DNA of 64,000 nt from Dictyostelium discoideum (lineage: Eukaryota). This document shows, piece after piece, positions 1 to 18,448 of the stretch; position 1 is the first letter of the stretch; the number at the start of each line of letters is the position of its first letter. A program made the translations under genes and the position numbers. The notes under the pieces are model-generated. The model had not been told where the DNA came from, searched no databases, and worked only from the letters and a program-made list of their open reading frames with translations. The DNA lies in the NCBI GenBank assembly GCA_000004695.1, contig CM000153.2, forward strand, positions 3,488,001-3,552,000, given 5' to 3'.

Positions 1-375
1 GAAAATTCTATTTTTGTAATAAAAGATAGTGACTTTTCCACCATTGATCTCTTAGGTTATTCAATTTTAAATCAAAACACCATTGCCAACGATTTAATAT
101 ACATAGTAAATAGCAGTTTAAATTTAGATAATAGTGTAATTAGATCACCAATGTTAGTTCCTCAACATATAATTAATTCAATTAATAGTTCAGTTTCAAT
201 TATTAATTTTAACCTTACAATCAGCGAACTACCAATTGTTGGATTTAATTCAAATATACATCTATTTAGTTCAGTTTTCACAAACGATGTTTACTGTGGT
301 TGCCAAGGCTGCTCATTTTATATTCAATTGGATTTGGTTGACCCATTAGAATACTTATCTCAATGCAATCTCTAA
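1..375 (+). CDS. 3' part of a 'family L' glycoprotein paralogue; its 5' end lies outside the window. It ends 20 aa after the CGCxGCSFY motif and has no Thr/Pro stalk, TM segment or tail, so it is either a secreted or truncated variant or a pseudogene.
   Basis: The frame is open from base 1 to the stop at 373-375. The translation ...NSNIHLFSSVFTNDVYCGCQGCSFYIQLD aligns with the membrane-proximal 'SFCGCQNCSFY' / 'IYCGCEECKYF' region of the L genes at 2502-4259, 5674-7545 and 16616-18448. Confidence 0.5.
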   Translation, partial: ENSIFVIKDSDFSTIDLLGYSILNQNTIANDLIYIVNSSLNLDNSVIRSPMLVPQHIINSINSSVSIINFNLTISELPIVGFNSNIHLFSSVFTNDVYCGCQGCSFYIQLDLVDPLEYLSQCNL

Positions 376-2501: not shown

Positions 2502-4259
2502 TTATAACTGTTCTAGTTGTGCAAAATCTTCATACTCTTGTTCATAAGCCACTACCGATATGTCAATGGTCGGAGAAACTGCTTTTTCATCCTCATCTGC
2601 AACAGCAATACATGGGCTATCATTAAGTATGCTATCATTTGAACTAATTTTATCATGATTATGGAGTTGTGAGTTTGAGATATATTTATTATTTTTATGT
2701 CTTTTATAAATGAATGAGAATATAATAAGACATGCGATAGATGCAATACCTAAAATTGAAATAATAATAGAAATGTTCCTTGATCTGCTACTTTTAGGAG
2801 AGTTTGGCGTTGAAGTTGATGTTGGTGCTGATGTTTGAGTTGATGTTTCGGTTGATGGATTTTCTGTTGGTTGATCTGTTGGTGTGTCTGTTGGATTAGA
2901 ACTACAAATATAGTTTGTGGTATCATGTATGGTTTCTCCTAAATAAAAGCTGCAATTTTGGCAACCACAAAAGGATTTGTTTGTAAAAGTGATATGACCA
3001 AAAAAAAATATGGAGGAGTTACTTCCAATAATGGGTGTATCAGAACTACTTAGGTCCAAACCAGATAAACTGACTGAACTACTTTCTGTTTTTAAAAAAT
3101 AATTGGGTGATATAAGCGAAGAAATTTCAATGAATGCAAAAGAGAGTGAACTGTTTTCAACAAAAACTAAAAAGTTTTCAATTGAATTTAAGGAAAGAGT
3201 TGATTGCAAACAATCTTTAATTTCTACGTGGCTCTTTTTGATTACTGCAAATGAATCTTCATATTCAAGTCCAAGATATTTATTTCTGTGATAAAATGGT
3301 GTTTGTGTGGTATTCTCGTATTCAAAGTTAAATAGTGTTGCGCCATTGCAATCATATAAATATATGAATGTGGAGAGTTGGTTGTTTTTGAAAATCAATG
3401 CTTTCAGTGTGACCAAGGAGCTGATTGACAAAATGAATGGATTCACAGAGAAATTAATGTTTGATATTTTTTGAATTGGAATATATATCTCTCCACCTTG
3501 GATAAAAACAAACGGAGTAGACAAGAATGTTCCATTATCTATATTCATACCTCTATTAATAAAACCACCGACCACATAAATAGGTGGTACATAATCGGTA
3601 ACTGAACCTGGTGCAAACAGACTTGAAGACGACTTTAAGTTATAACCTAAGGTTGATATAAAATGTACAGTGGTGAACCTTGCGTTGTAAATCTGGCCTA
3701 AATTCTTTGGATAAACCATTAATATGCTACTTGATGAATATATATTTACACGATTGAAATAAAGAGCAAACGATTTTGAATTGTTAGTTGAAGTTAAATT
3801 TATTTCTTGATTAATGTTGATTTTTGCAATTGTTTGATCCCAATTTAAATGTCTTTGCGATGTACATGAATAGGTTGAATTTGGTTGATCTGGCTCTTCA
3901 ATATTGAGAAATGGTAGTTGCGTTGAGTTCCAACCATCAATGTTAATAGATACATTATCACTACTTGATTTAATATATAAAGTACCACAATAATTATATA
4001 AATTTCCCAATGAAACAGGTGTTGATCCATTAATATCACTATTAATAACAATACTATTATTACTTGTACTGGTTTTTGATAATAAAATAGCTCTATTTGA
4101 AGCATCTTCAAATGATGTACAAACTGGTTGATTATCTACACCACATTCTTCAAAAGAATTGTAATTTCTTTCAACATTATAATTAACTTTAATATCTGTT
4201 GCAACGCAAATATTTAATAAAAAAAATAATAAATAAAAATATTTTAATTTTTCAATCAT
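2502..4259 (-). CDS. 'Family L' type-I membrane glycoprotein of 585 aa. It has a signal peptide, a roughly 450-aa NxS/T-rich ectodomain, a CGCxxCxF motif, a Thr/Pro/Ser stalk, one TM segment, and a short acidic tail carrying DEKAVSPTIDxxVVAYE.
   Basis: Single long ORF. The N-terminus MIEKLKYFYLLFFLLNICVAT is a signal peptide. TDTPTDQPTENPSTETSTQTSAPTSTSTP is a mucin-like stalk. IIISILGIASIACLIIFSFIY is the TM segment. The protein is paralogous to 5674-7545 and 16616-18448. Confidence 0.8.
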   Translation of the reverse strand: MIEKLKYFYLLFFLLNICVATDIKVNYNVERNYNSFEECGVDNQPVCTSFEDASNRAILLSKTSTSNNSIVINSDINGSTPVSLGNLYNYCGTLYIKSSSDNVSINIDGWNSTQLPFLNIEEPDQPNSTYSCTSQRHLNWDQTIAKININQEINLTSTNNSKSFALYFNRVNIYSSSSILMVYPKNLGQIYNARFTTVHFISTLGYNLKSSSSLFAPGSVTDYVPPIYVVGGFINRGMNIDNGTFLSTPFVFIQGGEIYIPIQKISNINFSVNPFILSISSLVTLKALIFKNNQLSTFIYLYDCNGATLFNFEYENTTQTPFYHRNKYLGLEYEDSFAVIKKSHVEIKDCLQSTLSLNSIENFLVFVENSSLSFAFIEISSLISPNYFLKTESSSVSLSGLDLSSSDTPIIGSNSSIFFFGHITFTNKSFCGCQNCSFYLGETIHDTTNYICSSNPTDTPTDQPTENPSTETSTQTSAPTSTSTPNSPKSSRSRNISIIISILGIASIACLIIFSFIYKRHKNNKYISNSQLHNHDKISSNDSILNDSPCIAVADEDEKAVSPTIDISVVAYEQEYEDFAQLEQL

Positions 4260-4366
4260 AAATGAAGTTAATAGTTTAATATTTTTATATATATATTTTT
4301 AAAAAATTTTACTATAATAACATTAAAAAAAAAAGATCAAATCTCATAATAATTTTTTTCAACTCG

Positions 4367-4402
<36 letters not shown>

Positions 4403-4496
4403 CCAAAAACAGCGTTTTTTTCTCTTAAGAAGCAGTTGAACTTGATTTTTATTTTAAAAAATTTTTGAGAACTTATTTGGGCTTTAATTTTGGCCC

Positions 4497-4547
<51 letters not shown>

Positions 4548-4740
4548 AAAAAATATAAATATAAAAACTAAAAGAAACCTTAGTTTGAGAATTAAAAATT
4601 ATATAGGTTTAAAACAAAATTTTTTTTTTTCTTTATTTCTTTTTTATTTTTTTTATTTTAAAAGATAAAAGATAATCACTTTTTTTTTTTTTTTTTTTTT
4701 TTTTTTTCTTTCTTGATAATAATACAGTGTAAAAACGATA

Positions 4741-5655
4741 TGAGATCATGAAGTTGAGTTAACCATATCCAGCATAATCTTCAAATTGACGTTCATAGTC
4801 TACCACATGCTATAGATCAAGCCCAAAATAACTGTAACAATGATAATATTCCTAGTCTTACTATCAATTGGACTTGTTGTTGTTGATGTTGATGGTAATG
4901 TAGTTGAGGTAGTTATAGTTGTTGTAGTTGATGTTGTAGTTGTAGTTGATGTTGTTAAAGCTGATGTGGTTGGTGTTGTTGCAGCTGAAGTAGTTGATGT
5001 TGTTCCAGCTGATGCGTTTGATGTTGTTGAAGTAGTTGTGGTTGATGTTGTGGAAGCAAATGTAGTAGATGTTGTTGAGGTTGTTGGTGTCGGTGTCAGT
5101 GTCGGATCAATGCAAGTGTGGTTAACGATGGGAATAAATTGAGAACCATATATAAGAAAATATTTACATTCTTCACAACCACAATAAATGTTATTTAATT
5201 TAGTGCTTTTTTTTGATAAATTCACATCTGAATTATTTCCAATCCCAACTTGTGAAATTCATATATTGAAAGAAGAGCCATCTTGAACATGATTGAGTTT
5301 GGTTATTTTCTTCTTCTGGTTCATATGTCAGAAATGGTTGGGTTGAGCTTGATCCTCGATTATTGTATAATTATTATTTTCATTATTGATATTTTCTGAA
5401 GTGATCCACAAGGCACCACAATAATTACCCAATGTAATTTGTTCTGATGTTACACTTATATTACCAATGATACCAATACAAACACGACTATTATTTGATA
5501 TTAATAAAAATGCTCTATTAACAGCATCTTTGAGTGATGTGCATATAGGTTCATTATTCATACCACATCCTTTTGATGAATTATAAACAGTTGGGATGTT
5601 GTAATTTAATAAAATCGTTGAATTTGGGCATAGCGGCGATGAAATATTTGCCATA
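4741..5655 (-). pseudogene. Promoterless, internally deleted tandem duplicate of the neighbouring L gene (5674-7545). It keeps the ectodomain N-terminus, the CGC/stalk/TM region and the 3' flank. It lacks the signal peptide, about 0.8 kb of ectodomain and part of the tail.
   Basis: Near-identical nucleotide blocks: 5281-5640 vs 7111-7470, 5165-5260 vs 6185-6290, 4810-4880 vs 5868-5940, 4741-4808 vs 5656-5725. The ORF fragments 5328-5654 and 4800-5225 match the N- and C-terminal parts of the 623-aa protein. The duplicate reading frame starts MANISS with no signal peptide, directly abutting the 3' flank sequence of the parent gene. Confidence 0.7.
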
Positions 5656-5673
5656 TGAGATCATGAAGATGAA

Positions 5674-7545
5674 TTAGTCATATTCAGCATAATCTTCAAA
5701 TTGATGTTCATAGGCTACCAATGTGAGATCAATAGTTGGAGATACTGCTTTCTCATCTTCTTCAGCCACAGCATATAGGTTACTATCAAAGCTCGGTTTT
5801 TCAGTGGATGAGGTATGTGATATGAATCTCCTATTTTTATACATTTTATAGATTAATGAGAATATTATGAGAGATGCTATAGACGCAGTGCCCAAAATAA
5901 CCGTAACAATAATAATATTCCTAGTCTTACTATCAATTGGACTTGTTGTTGTTGTTGTTGATGATGATAATGATGATGATAATGTAGTTGAGCTTGTTGC
6001 AGCTGATGTAGTTGATGTTGTTCCAGCTGATGTAGTTGATGTTGTTGGAGTAGCTGTGGTTGATGTTGTTGAAGCCAATGTAGTTGATGTTGTTGAGGTT
6101 GAGGTTATTGTTGTTGTTGGTGTAGGTGTTGGTGTTGGTGTCGGATCAATGCAAGTGTGGTTAACGATGGGAATAAATTGATAACCATATATAAGAAAAT
6201 ATTTACATTCTTCACAACCACAATAAATGTTATTTAATTTAGTGCTTTTTTCTGATAAATTCACATCTGAATTATTTCCAATCACTGGAAACATATTTGA
6301 TTGTCCACCTACAGCATCTTGTAAACTGACTGAACTATTGATAATGATAAGTATATGATCCACTTGGATTGGAAATAAACTACTATATGTTATTTTTAAA
6401 GAACTTTCTTCTGCAAAAAATAGACAGTGTACAGAGACATTTGGATTGAGTCTGTTGACCAAATAATTTTTTATACCAAATGTTTTGCCACTGGAATTCT
6501 TCATTGTTATTGATGAATTCTCTAATTGGTATCCTAAATAACTCTTTCTTTGATAATTGAGTGGACTTGATACATTTTTGAAGTATATACGACTAAATAG
6601 ATCTCTTTCAGTGGTTTGTGGGAACTGTGAGATAAAGAGAAATGTACTCATTATAGTGTTGGAGAAATTAGAGTGACCAATAAAATCCAAGCTTGAATTA
6701 ATGAGAAACATGAATGGATTCTCGAAGAAATTACAATTTTCTATCGTTGATTCAGCAGAATATACAAATGATCCTTTTTCGATGTATATAAATGGAATTG
6801 CTTCTAATACACTATCAAATAAACTTAAATTGAAAGTAATTGAACCACCCATCACATAAATTGGTGATATAAAATCGGTCAAGGAATTTGGAGCTAAAAT
6901 GGTGGGCGGTTTTAGGTTGAACACTTTTGTATAAGTAAAGCCTATCCTCAAAGATTGATAGTTATAAATAAAAGCAATACTTCTTGGTGAAATTATATTA
7001 CAACTTTCGAAATATATGAAACTTGATTGTTTCTCGGAATTATCTGAAATTTGATTGGTCACAGAGACAATTGGTCTATCCCAATTTGTAAAATTTATAT
7101 ATTGAAAGAAGAACCATCTTGAACATGATTGAGTTTGATTATTTTCCTCTTCTGGTTCATATGTCAGAAATGGTTGGGTTGAGCTTGATCCATCGATTAT
7201 TGTATAATTATTATTTTCATTATTGATATTTTCTGAAGTGATCCACAAGGCACCACAATAATTACCCAATGTAATTTGTTCTGATGTTACATTTATATTA
7301 CCAATGATACCAATACAAACACGACTATTATTTGATATTAATAAAAATGCTCTGCTAACAGCATCTTTGAGTGATGTGCATATCGGCTCGTTATTAAAAC
7401 CACATCCTTCTGATGAATTATAAACCGTTAGGATGTTGTAATTTAATAAAATCGTTGAATTTGGGCATAGCGGCGCTGAAACCACAAAAACAATTTTTAA
7501 AAATATTGCAAACAAAATTGAAAAATTATTTGATTTTCTAATCAT
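5674..7545 (-). CDS. 'Family L' type-I membrane glycoprotein of 623 aa, parent copy of the adjacent pseudogene.
   Basis: Single ORF. The signal peptide is MIRKSNNFSILFAIFLKIVFVVSA. It has many NxS/T sequons, the IYCGCEECKYF motif, a (TP)n/Thr-Ser stalk, the TM segment IIIVTVILGTASIASLIIFSLIY, and the tail ...EEDEKAVSPTIDLTLVAYEHQFEDYAEYD. Confidence 0.8.
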   Translation of the reverse strand: MIRKSNNFSILFAIFLKIVFVVSAPLCPNSTILLNYNILTVYNSSEGCGFNNEPICTSLKDAVSRAFLLISNNSRVCIGIIGNINVTSEQITLGNYCGALWITSENINNENNNYTIIDGSSSTQPFLTYEPEEENNQTQSCSRWFFFQYINFTNWDRPIVSVTNQISDNSEKQSSFIYFESCNIISPRSIAFIYNYQSLRIGFTYTKVFNLKPPTILAPNSLTDFISPIYVMGGSITFNLSLFDSVLEAIPFIYIEKGSFVYSAESTIENCNFFENPFMFLINSSLDFIGHSNFSNTIMSTFLFISQFPQTTERDLFSRIYFKNVSSPLNYQRKSYLGYQLENSSITMKNSSGKTFGIKNYLVNRLNPNVSVHCLFFAEESSLKITYSSLFPIQVDHILIIINSSVSLQDAVGGQSNMFPVIGNNSDVNLSEKSTKLNNIYCGCEECKYFLIYGYQFIPIVNHTCIDPTPTPTPTPTTTITSTSTTSTTLASTTSTTATPTTSTTSAGTTSTTSAATSSTTLSSSLSSSTTTTTSPIDSKTRNIIIVTVILGTASIASLIIFSLIYKMYKNRRFISHTSSTEKPSFDSNLYAVAEEDEKAVSPTIDLTLVAYEHQFEDYAEYD

Positions 7546-7635
7546 ATATTAATAAATTTACAAAGAAAACTGTTTTTTTTGATGTGAGCAAAAAAATTTT
7601 TAAACCTTTTTTTTCATCAATATTTATTTTTTTTT

Positions 7636-7671
<36 letters not shown>

Positions 7672-7890
7672 AATCGGTGGGGAGGAGACACCCAAAGTGA
7701 TTGAAAAAAAAAAAAAAAAAGAAAACAATAAAAAAAAAAAAAAAAAAACAAAAAAATAAAAAAAAAAAAAAAAATCTGAAGTTCTTCCAATATAAACAAG
7801 AAAATAAAGAAGTATAATAAATAATCAAAATAAAAAAAAAAAAATAAAAAAAAATTAAAATAAAAAATTATTTAATATTATTTATTTGTA

Positions 7891-7944
<54 letters not shown>

Positions 7945-7962
7945 ATTTAATATTATTTTTGT

Positions 7963-7997
<35 letters not shown>

Positions 7998-8018
7998 TAA
8001 AAAAGTTTAAAAAAAAAA

Positions 8019-8093
<75 letters not shown>

Positions 8094-8906
8094 AAAACTG
8101 AAAAGCTGGTCCATTTGCACAAGTTTGCATTTTTTTATTTTTATTTTTTTTTTTGTTGCCAAAAAGTATCATTTAATTATGGATGCGAGGCTTTTGGTAG
8201 TTGCGCTAGTTTGTGAGATTTCAAATTTAGTGTGGAATTGTTAACAAATTTTTTTGTATGCTTTTTCTTATGTTAGGTACATTAAAATTTAATGATCTTA
8301 ATTTTTTGAGGGCTTTAAAATTAAACAATTGTTAGAAAAATAATGTGGGGTTTTTTAAAAAAATAAAAAACTAATCTTGAAAATAATATTTTGTGGTTGA
8401 ATAATTTTTTTAAACACACGCAAAATGGGTTGTAAAACAAAAAAAAACGAAACAATTTGTCGATAATCACCTACCACCATGGATTTTCATCTCCAAAAAA
8501 AAAACAAATAATAAAAAAAAAAAAAAAAAAAAAGCCATCCCCTTAAAATATATTATTTTATTGATATTAATAGGGTTTTCTTTTGAGTTTAAAAATACTG
8601 TATAGTTTCGCAAAAAAATGCATCTTCATATTTTAAGTGTAAGAAGTTTCTTGGTTTTAGGAAATTAATTGATACCAATAATTAAAAATTATTTAACGAG
8701 TTTTTTTAAAAATTCTTATTTAAACAAAATTTTTTTTTTTTTTATTCATTAAATTCAAAATTAAAAATAATAAATATATAAATACAAATAAATAAATATA
8801 AATTATTAAATTAAATAAATAAATAAAAAAATAAAAATCAAATAGAATAATTATTACATTTCTCTTTAAAATAAAATCTTTTCTATAAATAAATAATATA
8901 AATAAA
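7546..8906. promoter_or_regulatory. Divergent (head-to-head) intergenic region shared by the L gene 5674-7545 (-) and the S gene 8907-9686 (+). It contains a roughly 450-bp block of normal-complexity sequence (8100-8520) flanked by homopolymer runs.
   Basis: The two start codons point away from each other across this interval. Bases 8100-8520 have clearly higher GC and complexity (e.g. gctggtccatttgcacaagtttgc, ggatgcgaggcttttggtagttgcgctagtttgtgag) than typical intergenic poly-A/T. No ORF is present. Confidence 0.4.
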
Positions 8907-9686
8907 ATGAACAAATCTATTTTCTTTAAAATAATCATATTTTTCTCTTTATTCAGTTTTTCAAATTGCATAATAACAGATTATGTATTTTCTATTGGCC
9001 ATAATTTAAACTCCCCAGTTGATATTCCTCGTGCTGCCGTTCCTACTTTCGACAATCCATTGAATGAAAATATTGGTCATCTCCCATCAAGTGTATATAA
9101 TATTACACTTTCCACATTTTATTTAAATAACATTGTGTCTCTCTCAACAAACAATCAATTTGGTGCCTTGTTCCATTATAATAATTTAAATGCTTTATTT
9201 ACCAAAATGAATAACATAACCAAAGTAAATCTAAATAAAGCCTATAATGATATCAATGCTATTGGAAAGTTTTCAACTTTAAATCAAATAACTATCATTC
9301 AAATTAGAGAATATTGGCTAAATGCCCAATCAAATTATCATATTCTCCAAAATACTATAACCTCATTAATCATTTCTATTCAACAAACAAAAAATAATTT
9401 GCTCGTAAACTCTCCAAATTCTAATTTATATAATATTGTATTAAATAATTACGAGATCTCTATTAATGGATTAATACAACTAAATTCAACATTTCAAAAT
9501 ATTAAAACTACTCTTGATATTACTTATTCAGCCTTTAGTTTAATACTACAACAAAACCTAGAGTATAATCAAAGTCCTTTCAATGAAGCATATTACATAA
9601 CAAAATTAAATGAAGGATTAAAGGAATTATTGAAAAGTTTCAACAGTTTTTATCTTCAATCATTTTTATTGTGTAGATTAATATAA
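8907..9686 (+). CDS. 'Family S' secreted protein, 259 aa.
   Basis: ORF with signal peptide MNKSIFFKIIIFFSLFSFSNC. It carries the family motifs IGHNLNSPVDIPRAAVPT and TFYLNNIVSLSTNNQFGA. Confidence 0.7.
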   Translation: MNKSIFFKIIIFFSLFSFSNCIITDYVFSIGHNLNSPVDIPRAAVPTFDNPLNENIGHLPSSVYNITLSTFYLNNIVSLSTNNQFGALFHYNNLNALFTKMNNITKVNLNKAYNDINAIGKFSTLNQITIIQIREYWLNAQSNYHILQNTITSLIISIQQTKNNLLVNSPNSNLYNIVLNNYEISINGLIQLNSTFQNIKTTLDITYSAFSLILQQNLEYNQSPFNEAYYITKLNEGLKELLKSFNSFYLQSFLLCRLI

Positions 9687-10173
9687 TAATAAATAAATAT
9701 ATAAATAAAATTCATATAATAATTAGTTTTTTAAATTGTAATTATAATATTATTATTATTATTATTATTTTTTTCAAATAATTTTAAATTAGATAAATAT
9801 GGGTACAAAAAAAAAGCATATCCAAAAAATGGTTTTTTTAAGTATAATTCCATTGGAGGTTTAGATCTTTGGGGTTTTTTTTTTTTTTTTTTTTTTTGTA
9901 TTTATAGTAATAATTTATAATTTGTAATAGAAGTAAAATAAAAAAAAAAAAAAAAAAAAAATGTGTTTACATGTAAATTTACAACTATTAAAAAAAAAAA
10001 TTTATCCTTTTATTATTATTATTTAAATGTAAAGGTTTTTGAAAAATTAATTTTCTTTCTCTTCTAATTTTGCTTTTTCATCTTCAATTTGATCATCTTC
10101 AATTTTTTGCTCTCGTTCTTTTTCATATTGTTTTCTTCTTGTTTTTGTTTTTCATTATCATTATTATTATTAT

Positions 10174-13384
<3,211 letters not shown>

Positions 13385-15513: not shown

Positions 15514-16284
15514 ATGAAATTTAAATCATTACAAATATTAAATTTAATTATAATTTCTTTTTATTTTAATTTATCAAATTCTACAATTACAAATTATGTA
15601 CTATTAATTGGAAGAGATTTAAATTGTACTGAAGATATTCCAAGAGCTTCTTTGTTAACAATTACAAACCAAGCCTATGCTATGAATATAAAATTTGAAA
15701 CCAATGATGAAGTTTTTAATTTTACTTTTAGTAAATATTATTTAAACAATTTAGTTTCATTAGGAATTAATGAATCTCCAATAGCTCTTTTCAATTATAA
15801 TAATTTCACAAATTTAATAAATAATTTAACAAATGAATCTCAGTTTGGTTTAAATAATACTTTTAATTATATAAATACAGTTAGTAAATTTTCAAATTTG
15901 GATAATTTAAAATTGACAACAATTTCAAATTCAGTTTCTCAAATGTTAACTAAAATAAAATCAATTAAAAATGTTACAGTTGCTTTAGATAATAATATTA
16001 AAAGTATTAATAGTCCCACTAAAGTTGTAATGGATAGTTATCAACTTGTTAGTTCCTCTCTCAATTTTGTAAATAATCGTATATCTAATATTATTACCAC
16101 ACTAAACTCAATGAAACAAAATGTGAATGATTTTCAAAATGAGTTGGATTATTATTCAATTATTGGTGATGATGATGATCATATGACAACAATGAATGAC
16201 ATTATGAAATCTTTCTTAAATAATTGTTTTATGTATTACAATTATTCGGTTTTTTTTTCAAGATTTATGATTGATCTTAATTAA
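15514..16284 (+). CDS. 'Family S' secreted protein, 256 aa.
   Basis: ORF with signal peptide MKFKSLQILNLIIISFYFNLSNS. It carries the motifs IGRDLNCTEDIPRASLLT and FSKYYLNNLVSLGINESPIALFNYNNF. Confidence 0.7.
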   Translation: MKFKSLQILNLIIISFYFNLSNSTITNYVLLIGRDLNCTEDIPRASLLTITNQAYAMNIKFETNDEVFNFTFSKYYLNNLVSLGINESPIALFNYNNFTNLINNLTNESQFGLNNTFNYINTVSKFSNLDNLKLTTISNSVSQMLTKIKSIKNVTVALDNNIKSINSPTKVVMDSYQLVSSSLNFVNNRISNIITTLNSMKQNVNDFQNELDYYSIIGDDDDHMTTMNDIMKSFLNNCFMYYNYSVFFSRFMIDLN

Positions 16285-16615: not shown

Positions 16616-18448
16616 ATGAAAGAATTTATATATTATTATTTTTTATTTTATTTTTTTATTAAAATTATAAATTCTGAAAATATTATTTTTGTAGATTATA
16701 ATATTAAGAGGAATTATAATTCATTTGATGAATGTGGTAGCAGTGATCAACCAATTTGCACATCTTTCGAGGATGCAATCAATAAAGTAATTTTAATATC
16801 AATCAATTCTTTAGATACTCCTACTATTTATATAAATATAATTGGTGATATTAATGGTACAAATATAATATCATTAGGTAATTTATATAATTTTTGTGGT
16901 ACTCTATATATTAGATCAAATAGTAGTAATTCCAATATAAATATTGATGGAACAAATTCAACTCAACAACCATTTCTAATAATTCAAGAACCAGATGAAA
17001 TTAATTTAACAATTTCAAAATGTACAAAAAAAAGAGTTTTTATATTTCAACGTTTAAATTTTATAAATTGGGATCAAACTATTATTAGTATAAATATTAA
17101 TCAAGAAATTAACGATCAACCAATTGATCAATCAAAATTTTTTCAAATATTAATGGTTGATACTTTTATAATTTCATCAAGTAGTATAATATTTGTAAAT
17201 CCAAAGAATTCAAAAGATTTATTTAAAAATTATAATTTTAAGGGTTTACAATTTTATTTTACAACTTCATATTGTATTAATATGAAATCTTCAAAACTAT
17301 TAGCTCCGAATTCTACAGATAATTTTTTACCACCAATTTATATTATTGGTGGTTCGATTATAAGGTTTTTTAATATTCAAAATAGTTCAATATTATCAAC
17401 TCCTTTTATTTATATTAAAAGTGGATCATTGGAATTTGTTAATGATATTTCAATATCAAATAATAACTTTTCAATTTATCCAATTGTTTTATTAATAAAT
17501 TCAAAGTTTTCAACTTTAAAAACAATTTCATTCAATGAAAATGAATTTTTTACTTTTTTTTTATTTTATGAATGCCAAACTCAACCAATCACACCAATTA
17601 ACTTTTTTAATAATATTCAACCACATCAATCAAATTATCAGAGAAAATTATATCTAGGAATTCAATTGGAAAATTCAGTAACTGTAATAAAAAATAGCCA
17701 TTTTACAATACAGGAATATTTAAAGTTTACTTTAAATTTAAATAATACTATTGGAAATGATATATTTTATGTTGAAAATAGTAATTTTATTATTCAATTT
17801 TTGGGATTGGAAAGATTGATTCAAGGTAATCATATGATTAAGGTAATCAATAGTATAGTAACTTTTCAAAATATAGATTTAAAATGGGACGGATTTCCAA
17901 TTATTGGTTCAAACTCAACAATTGATTTCATATATTGTAAAAATTTAAATAATTCATTTTGTGGTTGCTCTACTTGTAATTTTTTAAATCAATCTTTTAA
18001 TTGTGATTTTAGTTCTTCAACAGCATCATCTTTTGAACCAACCGAAACTCCAACTCTTTCTGAAACTAATTCTCCCACAAACACTCAAACACCACCTACA
18101 ATAACCGAGACTCCAACTCATTCTAAAACCAATACCCCAACAAATACTCAAACCCCAAAAATAAACGAAACGCAACCATTTATAACAAATACCCCAACAC
18201 CAACACAAACTTTAAAAAAATCAAATAAAAATAGGAATATAGCTATTATTGTTGTAACTATAGTTTTAGGTGTCACATCAATTGTTTCACTTTTAATATT
18301 TTCAATATATAAAAGATATAATTCTAAATTATCAATTAGGGATAATGATAACATGTTTGGAGCTGGTGATGAAAAAGCATTCTCACCAAGTTTTGATATT
18401 GTGACACCCAATATAAATGAAGATTGCGGTCAAAAAGAAGGATTATAA
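16616..18448 (+). CDS. 'Family L' type-I membrane glycoprotein, 610 aa.
   Basis: ORF with signal peptide MKEFIYYYFLFYFFIKIINS. It has the shared ectodomain motifs VDYNIKRNYNSFDECGSSDQPICTSFEDAINK and SFCGCSTCNF, a T/P-rich stalk (ETPTLSETNSPTNTQTPPTITETPT...), the TM segment IAIIVVTIVLGVTSIVSLLIFSIY, and the tail GDEKAFSPSFDIV. Confidence 0.8.
   Translation: MKEFIYYYFLFYFFIKIINSENIIFVDYNIKRNYNSFDECGSSDQPICTSFEDAINKVILISINSLDTPTIYINIIGDINGTNIISLGNLYNFCGTLYIRSNSSNSNINIDGTNSTQQPFLIIQEPDEINLTISKCTKKRVFIFQRLNFINWDQTIISININQEINDQPIDQSKFFQILMVDTFIISSSSIIFVNPKNSKDLFKNYNFKGLQFYFTTSYCINMKSSKLLAPNSTDNFLPPIYIIGGSIIRFFNIQNSSILSTPFIYIKSGSLEFVNDISISNNNFSIYPIVLLINSKFSTLKTISFNENEFFTFFLFYECQTQPITPINFFNNIQPHQSNYQRKLYLGIQLENSVTVIKNSHFTIQEYLKFTLNLNNTIGNDIFYVENSNFIIQFLGLERLIQGNHMIKVINSIVTFQNIDLKWDGFPIIGSNSTIDFIYCKNLNNSFCGCSTCNFLNQSFNCDFSSSTASSFEPTETPTLSETNSPTNTQTPPTITETPTHSKTNTPTNTQTPKINETQPFITNTPTPTQTLKKSNKNRNIAIIVVTIVLGVTSIVSLLIFSIYKRYNSKLSIRDNDNMFGAGDEKAFSPSFDIVTPNINEDCGQKEGL

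Follow-up and report, generated by a model that had tools for sequence, protein, structure and literature searches.

The segment 4738-5657 of the window, by which we mean the whole analysed stretch of 64,000 nucleotides from Dictyostelium discoideum, is very probably an unprocessed (DNA-duplicated) pseudogene, which decayed lineage by lineage from a complete second copy (copy 2) of the neighbouring gene DDB_G0285631. A preliminary description of this DNA had regarded the segment as a promoterless, internally deleted and decaying tandem duplicate, and in addition as a product of recent unequal crossover. The first view is borne out by the analyses presented here. The second is not, as the lesion that shortens the tail is common to the copy in strain AX4 and to its counterparts in two other genomes (L001_c2 and L004_c3), and as the junctions in AX4 are non-homologous.

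The parent gene and its family

The open reading frame (ORF) next to the pseudogene is an exact match to the D. discoideum AX4 hypothetical protein DDB_G0285631 (EAL64653.1, XP_638178.1, UniProt Q54MW5, 'Transmembrane protein'). The gene is intronless; its product comprises a signal peptide, a predicted parallel beta-helix ectodomain of ~440 aa and a CGCEEC Cys motif, followed by a (TP)n/T-S-rich stalk, a single transmembrane (TM) helix and an acidic cytoplasmic tail. Both the parent and the pseudogene lie on the minus strand of the window (Table 1), and the loci from other assemblies are given in gene sense, i.e. reversed with respect to the window. A literature search by identifier found no papers on DDB_G0285631 or on the neighbouring gene identifiers. 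The window is AT-rich (14-29% GC per 2-kb stretch) and contains long homopolymer tracts; poly(T)/poly(A) tracts of 30-65 nt flank the pseudogene and the parent at 4360-4405, 4490-4545, 4675-4708 and 7640-7780.

The family appears to be tiny and Dictyostelium-specific. A HMMER search of 1.84 billion cluster representatives identified 12 proteins related to the ectodomain (E<=1e-10), a family size that is counted among representatives at 50% identity, and a word-indexed protein search returned six matches with the full parent protein and five with the ectodomain alone. All named relatives found in homology searches belong to Dictyostelium species, and in Pfam scans neither the parent nor either ORF fragment of the pseudogene nor the paralogues had a match above threshold. 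According to structure prediction, the ectodomain would form a right-handed parallel beta-helix. Besides the two older paralogues listed in Table 1, the end of a third one, also at ~34% identity, is found at window 1-324. The motif EDEKAVSPTID..V.Y...ED in the cytoplasmic tail is conserved among these distant paralogues, which suggests a function of the tail in sorting or signalling; it is gone from the copy. In its extended form, (A/G)(E/D)EDEKAVSPTID..V.Y...ED(Y/F), as derived from the parent tail (5677-5800) and the tails of the paralogues, the motif is far better kept than the ectodomain.

Table 1. Features of the DDB_G0285631 locus (window coordinates, unless another assembly is named)
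Feature	Coordinates	Strand	Remarks
Parent gene (copy 1), DDB_G0285631	5674..7545	-	Intact, 623 aa
Whole pseudogene (remnant of copy 2, the 'short-tail' copy)	4738..5657	-	From the junction with the parent 3' flank to its own remnant 3' flank; from blastn blocks, multiple alignments and identity with L003
5' deletion junction	5645..5657	-	CATATGGC (5650-5657) is parent 3' flank; AAATA (5645-5649) is filler
N-terminal ectodomain block	5242..5644	-	Parent codons 22-156, 95.3% identical
1-bp deletion site, AX4-specific	5355..5356	-	ATCGA^GGATC versus ATCGATGGATC; from alignments
Internal deletion junction	5242..5244	-	3-bp GAT microhomology; 794 bp (parent 6284-7077) gone
Ectodomain end, T/S-rich stalk and truncated TM helix	4800..5241	-	ORF 4800-5225; 80% match to parent 5874-6283; TAG at 4800-4802
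Tail remnant	4738..4805	-	Out-of-frame last 15 codons, old stop TAA at 4759-4761 and 21 bp of duplicated 3' flank; 90% match to 5653-5720
Older paralogue	2502..4259	-	585 aa, ~34% identity
Older paralogue	16616..18448	+	610 aa, ~34% identity
(ACACCA)n units, AX4 parent	6105..6150		~4-5 units
(ACACCA)n units, AX4 copy	5085..5110		Degenerate, TLTPTP
(ACACCA)n units, L004_c2			~15 units
(ACACCA)n units, L001_c2	L001 13710..13886		~28 units

Anatomy of the AX4 pseudogene

Pairwise blastn of 4600-5700 against 5640-7700, complemented with a repeat finder, revealed three colinear blocks on the same strand. The first (5242-5644 versus parent 7078-7481) is 95.3% identical over 404 columns with one 1-bp gap (E=0), the second, which covers the stalk (4807-5244 versus 5874-6283), is 80.3% identical over 446 columns with six gaps in the T/S/P-rich stalk (E=3e-121), and the third (4738-4805 versus 5653-5720) is 89.7% identical over 68 bp (E=6.6e-22). 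Such an alignment was the check proposed in the preliminary description, and the similarity that it reveals is far above chance. In agreement, tblastn maps the parent residues 22-126, 119-156, 422-569 and 605-622 onto the copy. The 'near identity' previously claimed for the whole copy thus applies to the N-terminal block, but not to the stalk block with its indels.

At its 5' end the copy is indeed fused to the 3' flank of the parent. Homology to the parent begins at TTTCA(T/G)CGCCGC / TTTCATCGCCGC (window 5644), i.e. already in the last codons of the signal peptide, 30 bp past the parent stop codon, and five nucleotides of filler lie between this point and the flank. The rest of the signal peptide and all upstream DNA are absent from the AX4 copy, including the spacer and the upstream region present in L001 and L004, so that the copy is promoterless, as had been described. 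A chance in-frame ATG at 5652-5654, 19 bp past the parent stop, is supplied by the CATATGGC octamer, and the ORF that starts there begins with 'MANISSPLCPNS'. This first ORF (5328-5654, 108 aa) is closed by a stop at 5328-5330, into which the frame is shifted by the 1-bp deletion at 5355/5356, found in none of the other copies aligned.

Two larger segments are missing from the body of the copy. The internal deletion, estimated before at about 0.8 kb and measured here as 794 bp, corresponds to parent codons ~157-421, the core of the predicted beta-helix and its best and confidently modelled part. The loss from the tail amounts to 153 bp (parent 5721-5873) rather than to the ~110 bp reported earlier, and it is accompanied by a frame shift. 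The second ORF retains the CGC..C motif NNIYCGCEECKYF and the T/S/P-rich stalk, but closes with ...NIIIVTVILGLIYSMW* at a premature TAG inside the would-be TM helix, which is shortened to 16 residues, while the cytoplasmic motif is deleted. The stalk differs from that of the parent as had been noticed, but only moderately: instead of a TTS/STT-rich versus a (TP)n repeat, we find TLTPTP followed by a T/S-rich run in the copy and (TP)4-5 followed by a T/S-rich run in the parent. With a frameshift, two premature stops and two internal losses, the copy is decaying in the sense of the preliminary description. We also considered whether the truncated C-terminus (...SPIDSKTRNIIIVTVILGLIYSMW) may be read as a signal for a GPI anchor; its hydrophobic end and spacer fit, but the candidate omega sites precede proline or sit too near the hydrophobic stretch, and the anchor is retained here solely within the possibility, discussed below, of a working variant in wild isolates.

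As the region contains tandem paralogues and is flanked by long homopolymer tracts, it is prone to mis-assembly, and one could imagine that two full copies had been collapsed, or joined into a chimera, in the repeat-rich AX4 reference. We regard the probability of such an artefact as negligible. In the independent long-read assembly L003 (GCA_054883475.1) the copy 4738-5655 is 100% identical, base for base, there is no difference over 4700-7600, and the parent protein is identical to that of AX4, yet L003 does differ from the window elsewhere: over this 10-kb stretch every difference sits in the long poly(T)/poly(A) tracts. The lesions are therefore real and not errors of assembly.

Coding potential and probable effect on the parent

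With no upstream DNA, no signal peptide, and both the beta-helix core and the tail motif missing, the remnant would not be able to encode a functional protein. It cannot give rise to a protein that is secreted or inserted into the membrane, and a function at the protein level is most unlikely; we infer that it is not expressed.

It could nonetheless be argued that the remnant still functions, either as a small non-secreted protein made from the 108-aa ORF or as a spliced product of 221 aa, which is annotated in L003. The former could use the in-frame ATG mentioned above; as to the latter, the combined loss due to the 1-bp and 794-bp deletions is 795 bp (265 codons), which leaves the N- and C-terminal pieces in one frame, and an automated annotation does propose such a gene. 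However, two in-frame stops separate the pieces, in the 112-bp out-of-frame stretch between the first and the second ORF, and the 221-aa product, the only gene model over the remnant, demands the removal of 96 nt. None of the 96-nt removals that yield 221 aa has GT..AG boundaries, and no single GT..AG intron of 40-300 nt was found that would join both ORFs into 221 aa. Moreover, neither product would have a signal peptide, although the domain is extracellular, cysteine-bearing and N-glycosylated, the beta-helix core is missing from both, and an ATG located 19 bp past the parent stop leaves no room for an upstream region. The exact 108-aa and 141-aa products of the two ORFs are absent from a collection of 15 billion proteins. 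A functional remnant is thus very unlikely, and the 221-aa model is regarded as an artefact of homology-based annotation, a trap for annotators in the form of a 'gene' with a non-canonical intron. This model is also all that was found of the spliced functional transcript which, according to the preliminary description, would speak against a decaying copy.

A word-indexed protein search with the repaired translation of the copy gave no match, such searches being swamped by the T/S-rich stalk. When substitutions between parent and copy are polarised with the other copies, eight non-synonymous and four synonymous changes fall on the branch of the copy, and three and five, respectively, on that of the parent; the skew points towards relaxed constraint, but does not reach significance (Fisher p=0.36).

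The main effect of the pseudogene is likely to be passive and would concern the 3' untranslated region (UTR) of the parent. In the spacers of L001 and L004, a cluster of AATAAA signals is located ~110-125 bp downstream of copy 1. In AX4 this cluster has been removed by a 478-bp deletion, and the first candidate poly(A) signals past the parent stop are ATTAAA at 5610 and 5199 and AATAAA at 4657, i.e. inside or beyond the pseudogene. In AX4, transcription of DDB_G0285631 thus probably continues into the pseudogene, where the transcripts would be polyadenylated, and the AX4/AX2 mRNAs would carry pseudogene sequence as their 3' UTR. The gene would then have different 3' UTRs in AX4/AX2 and in wild strains.

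The same locus in other assemblies

Using exact-protein look-up of the closest homologues, we reached the same locus in three other assemblies (L001, L002 and L004). They probably come from a published set of long-read Dictyostelium genomes, which includes AX2-214, the wild D. discoideum isolates CR116C and OT3A, and the possible cryptic species M4B and S6B (PMC12745789). The gene number at the locus varies: there is one gene and a pseudogene in AX4, one gene and a full-length second copy in L001, two genes and a pseudogene in L004, and a single gene in L002. The view that the locus expands and contracts is thereby supported.

The preliminary description had proposed to look for an intact second copy in other strains. 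In L001, which is labelled D. discoideum, a 434-bp spacer separates the orthologue of the parent (631 aa) from a second copy downstream, L001_c2. This copy is of full length; it comes with an upstream region of its own, and its ORF of 576 codons ends with ...NIIILTVILGLIHSMW*. Apart from the short tail it is intact except for one T missing from a T-run in the signal peptide (TTTT versus TTTTT, at ~12349 within L001 ~12331-12400). The L001 annotation bridges this gap with an upstream exon, resulting in a 596-aa model that starts at 11971. The missing T may be an error, as the assembly is nanopore-based, or a real inactivating mutation.

In L004, also labelled D. discoideum, an array of three copies spans 5091-11300, with c1 (632 aa) followed by c2 (642 aa, at 7493-9421) and by the short-tailed c3. 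L004_c3 carries a ~290-bp deletion, a 13-bp deletion and several deletions of 1-2 bp, none of which is common to AX4. At L004 ~11120-11135, L004_c3 has TGG where the short-tail copies have the premature TAG, and its frame continues into the flank; the premature stop thus varies among the orthologues.

In L002, labelled D. cf. discoideum, there is just one close copy, and after it comes a fragmentary gene of the family with ~33% identity. This gene (L002 12127-13773, downstream of the parent orthologue) is split into models of 377 aa and 57 aa; its N-terminal ~95-120 residues are missing, and it may thus be a further member in decay.

The stalk begins with (TP)n, which is encoded by a hypervariable (ACACCA)n microsatellite with ~4 to ~28 units among the copies (Table 1).

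Age and origin of the copy

According to the multiple alignments, the AX4 copy, L001_c2 and L004_c3 exhibit the same tail lesion, with identical breakpoints and a 2-bp shift. The shared sequence reads GGG--CTTGATC(T/C)ATAGCATGTGGT(A/G)GACTATGAA..CAATTTGAAGATTATGCTGGATATGGTTAACTCAAC and translates into ...VILGLI(Y/H)SMW, followed by a remnant of the last 15 codons. Such an identical rearrangement indicates that the three copies are orthologous. As L001_c2 is of full length and has its own upstream region, both the duplication and the tail lesion would be older than the split between the isolates, and the copy would have been born complete.

Three further lesions are specific for AX4/AX2, namely the 478-bp, 1-bp and 794-bp deletions. 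The 478-bp deletion corresponds to L001 11915-12392 and took the spacer, the upstream region of copy 2, the start codon and most of the signal peptide. Neither of the two larger AX4 junctions is homologous: one joins the flank to the signal peptide via the 5-nt filler, and the other, inside the gene, has the 3-bp GAT microhomology.

On the basis of these comparisons we propose the following scenario, in which the order of events is putative. In an ancestor of AX4 and at least two wild isolates, the whole of DDB_G0285631 would have been tandemly duplicated, together with ~200 bp of upstream and ~45 bp of downstream DNA. Before the lineages split, the tail of the downstream copy 2 would have been shortened by 153 bp and put out of frame, so that the reading frame ended in the TM helix and the cytoplasmic motif was gone. 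After the split, copy 2 would have decayed separately in each lineage. In the AX4/AX2 lineage it would have suffered (i) the loss of ~478 bp, from 19 bp past the parent stop to its last signal-peptide codons, and with them of the spacer, promoter, start codon and signal peptide, (ii) the loss of a single base, and (iii) the loss of 794 bp, which took the core of the beta-helix ectodomain.

The scenario implied by the preliminary description is different: the AX4 lineage would recently have undergone an unequal crossover or a partial duplication, from which the copy emerged already truncated, promoterless and starting at the mature N-terminus. That the copy adjoins the 3' flank of the parent, that 21 bp of this flank are repeated at its own 3' end and that its N-terminal block is 95% identical to the parent all fit such an origin, and within AX4 the parent and the copy resemble each other a little more (95.4%) than they do the copies of other genomes (93-94%). 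However, two diverged isolates carry the same tail lesion, and in one of them copy 2 is of full length and has an upstream region of its own; the 5' junction with its filler is unlike that expected of a crossover between aligned paralogues. Furthermore, parent and copy in AX4 have diverged by 4.6%, a figure similar in magnitude to the divergence between isolates, and at several sites, polarised with the other copies, the copy has the ancestral state and the parent the changed one. The multi-genome alignments thus appear largely to refute a copy truncated at birth, which we consider scarcely credible in comparison with lineage-by-lineage decay from a complete copy 2. Retroposition is argued against by the 21-45 bp of 3' flank that were duplicated and by the ~200 bp of homologous upstream DNA carried by the orthologous copies in L001 and L004; nor does the homology close with a poly(A) tail on its 3' side.

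Dating of the copy is blurred by gene conversion. The absence of a second copy from L002 may mean that the duplication arose later or that the copy was lost in the L002 lineage. If the missing T in L001_c2 is an assembly error, the short-tail copy may still work in that genome, and it would be wrong to describe it as a pseudogene since the common ancestor. It is tempting to consider that in some wild isolates, as in L001, the short-tail copy is a working tail-less or lipid-anchored beta-helix surface variant with a (TP)~28 stalk, kept similar to copy 1 by gene conversion and lost in AX4/AX2. We consider this rather improbable, and for L001_c2 it hinges on whether the single missing T is real. 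If it were true, the locus would harbour a pair of surface receptors that is polymorphic for presence/absence and copy number and evolves like the tgr recognition genes.

Gene conversion and unequal crossover at the locus

The upstream and coding regions of the copies group differently. The upstream regions group by copy type across strains, with L001_c2, L004_c2 and L004_c3 being 97-98% alike and ~72% identical to the c1 type. The coding regions, on the other hand, group by genome: in L001, the identity between c1 and c2 amounts to 100% in the N-terminal 395 columns and to 98.7% in the ectodomain, and in the coding comparison the AX4 parent and copy are 95.4% identical, whereas AX4 differs from the wild isolates by 6-7%. 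This pattern points to gene conversion across the coding part.

In the L004 lineage, unequal crossover can also be documented from the sequences. L004_c2 combines an upstream region of the copy-2 type with a full tail and 3' flank of the copy-1 type, and each of the two L004 spacers is a copy of the one spacer in L001 (95-97%). A hybrid gene together with a doubled spacer is what an unequal crossover between misaligned c1 and c2 would be expected to leave. A hybrid gene of this kind would be recognized by a junction in homologous register and a reciprocal change in copy number; L004_c2 exhibits this combination, whereas the AX4 copy does not, and the crossover documented at the locus would therefore not be the source of the AX4 remnant.

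Relationship to known systems

The classical pseudogenes of the globin clusters are unprocessed (duplicated) pseudogenes in tandem gene clusters. The AX4 copy resembles them in that it was duplicated at the DNA level beside its parent and keeps flanking non-coding DNA, in that its promoter is gone and deletions, frameshifts and premature stops have disabled it, and in that it still exchanges sequence with its functional neighbour or resembles it. Unlike in the globin case, DDB_G0285631 is intronless, so the test of retained introns is inapplicable and the argument against retroposition relies on the tandem position and on the flanks and upstream DNA in other strains. Another difference is that three genomes show the orthologous copy in three different states of decay. 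In genes of the Lepore/anti-Lepore type, hybrids and changes in copy number result from unequal crossing-over. The L004 array, with its three copies, hybrid middle gene and duplicated spacer, matches this type, whereas the AX4 element is not a hybrid and its junctions are non-homologous deletions. The AX4 element is an ordinary, textbook unprocessed pseudogene in a tandem cluster, which requires no new mechanism.

A comparison can also be made with the tgr family (the tgrB1/tgrC1 allorecognition locus), i.e. clustered genes for single-pass cell-surface glycoproteins, with 26 tgr pseudogenes in AX4 and with duplicates, partial gene fragments and strain-to-strain structural turnover at the locus (PMC12745789). 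The DDB_G0285631 locus as a whole exhibits gain and loss of genes with concerted evolution, which recalls the description of the tgr genes in that study. However, there is no relationship to the tgr proteins in sequence or fold, the DDB_G0285631 family being a predicted right-handed beta-helix with no Pfam domain. To the pectin-lyase-like right-handed parallel beta-helix proteins (GH110, GH87, PL6, phage tailspikes, and the bacterial adhesins SRRP and PfbA) the resemblance is at the level of the fold only, with 8-12% sequence identity, no Pfam match and Foldseek E-values of 1.4e-3 or worse, and in the pseudogene the core of the helix is deleted.

Taken alone, the pseudogene matters little, being one more duplicated pseudogene in a eukaryotic genome. 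The locus is more useful as a worked example, in which one orthologous copy is found in three states (of full length, with the AX4-type deletions and with other deletions) beside a three-copy array with a hybrid, and in which tandem duplication, unequal crossover, gene conversion and deletional decay are documented within a few kb of a Dictyostelium-specific cluster.

Other features of the cluster

Three small paralogous proteins of 256-266 aa (592-1392 on the minus strand, 8907-9686 and 15514-16284 on the plus strand), with 30-35% identity, hydrophobic N-termini and no Pfam domain, are also encoded in the window. Each of them adjoins a large member of the beta-helix family, and the cluster therefore seems to have been built from a two-gene unit. 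The c1/c2 tandem repeat comprises the large gene only. Finally, the 585-aa paralogue (window 2502-4553) has a copy of ~86% nucleotide identity past the left edge of the window (L003 20852-21872; L004 20453-22864), which points to a second, younger duplication in the cluster.
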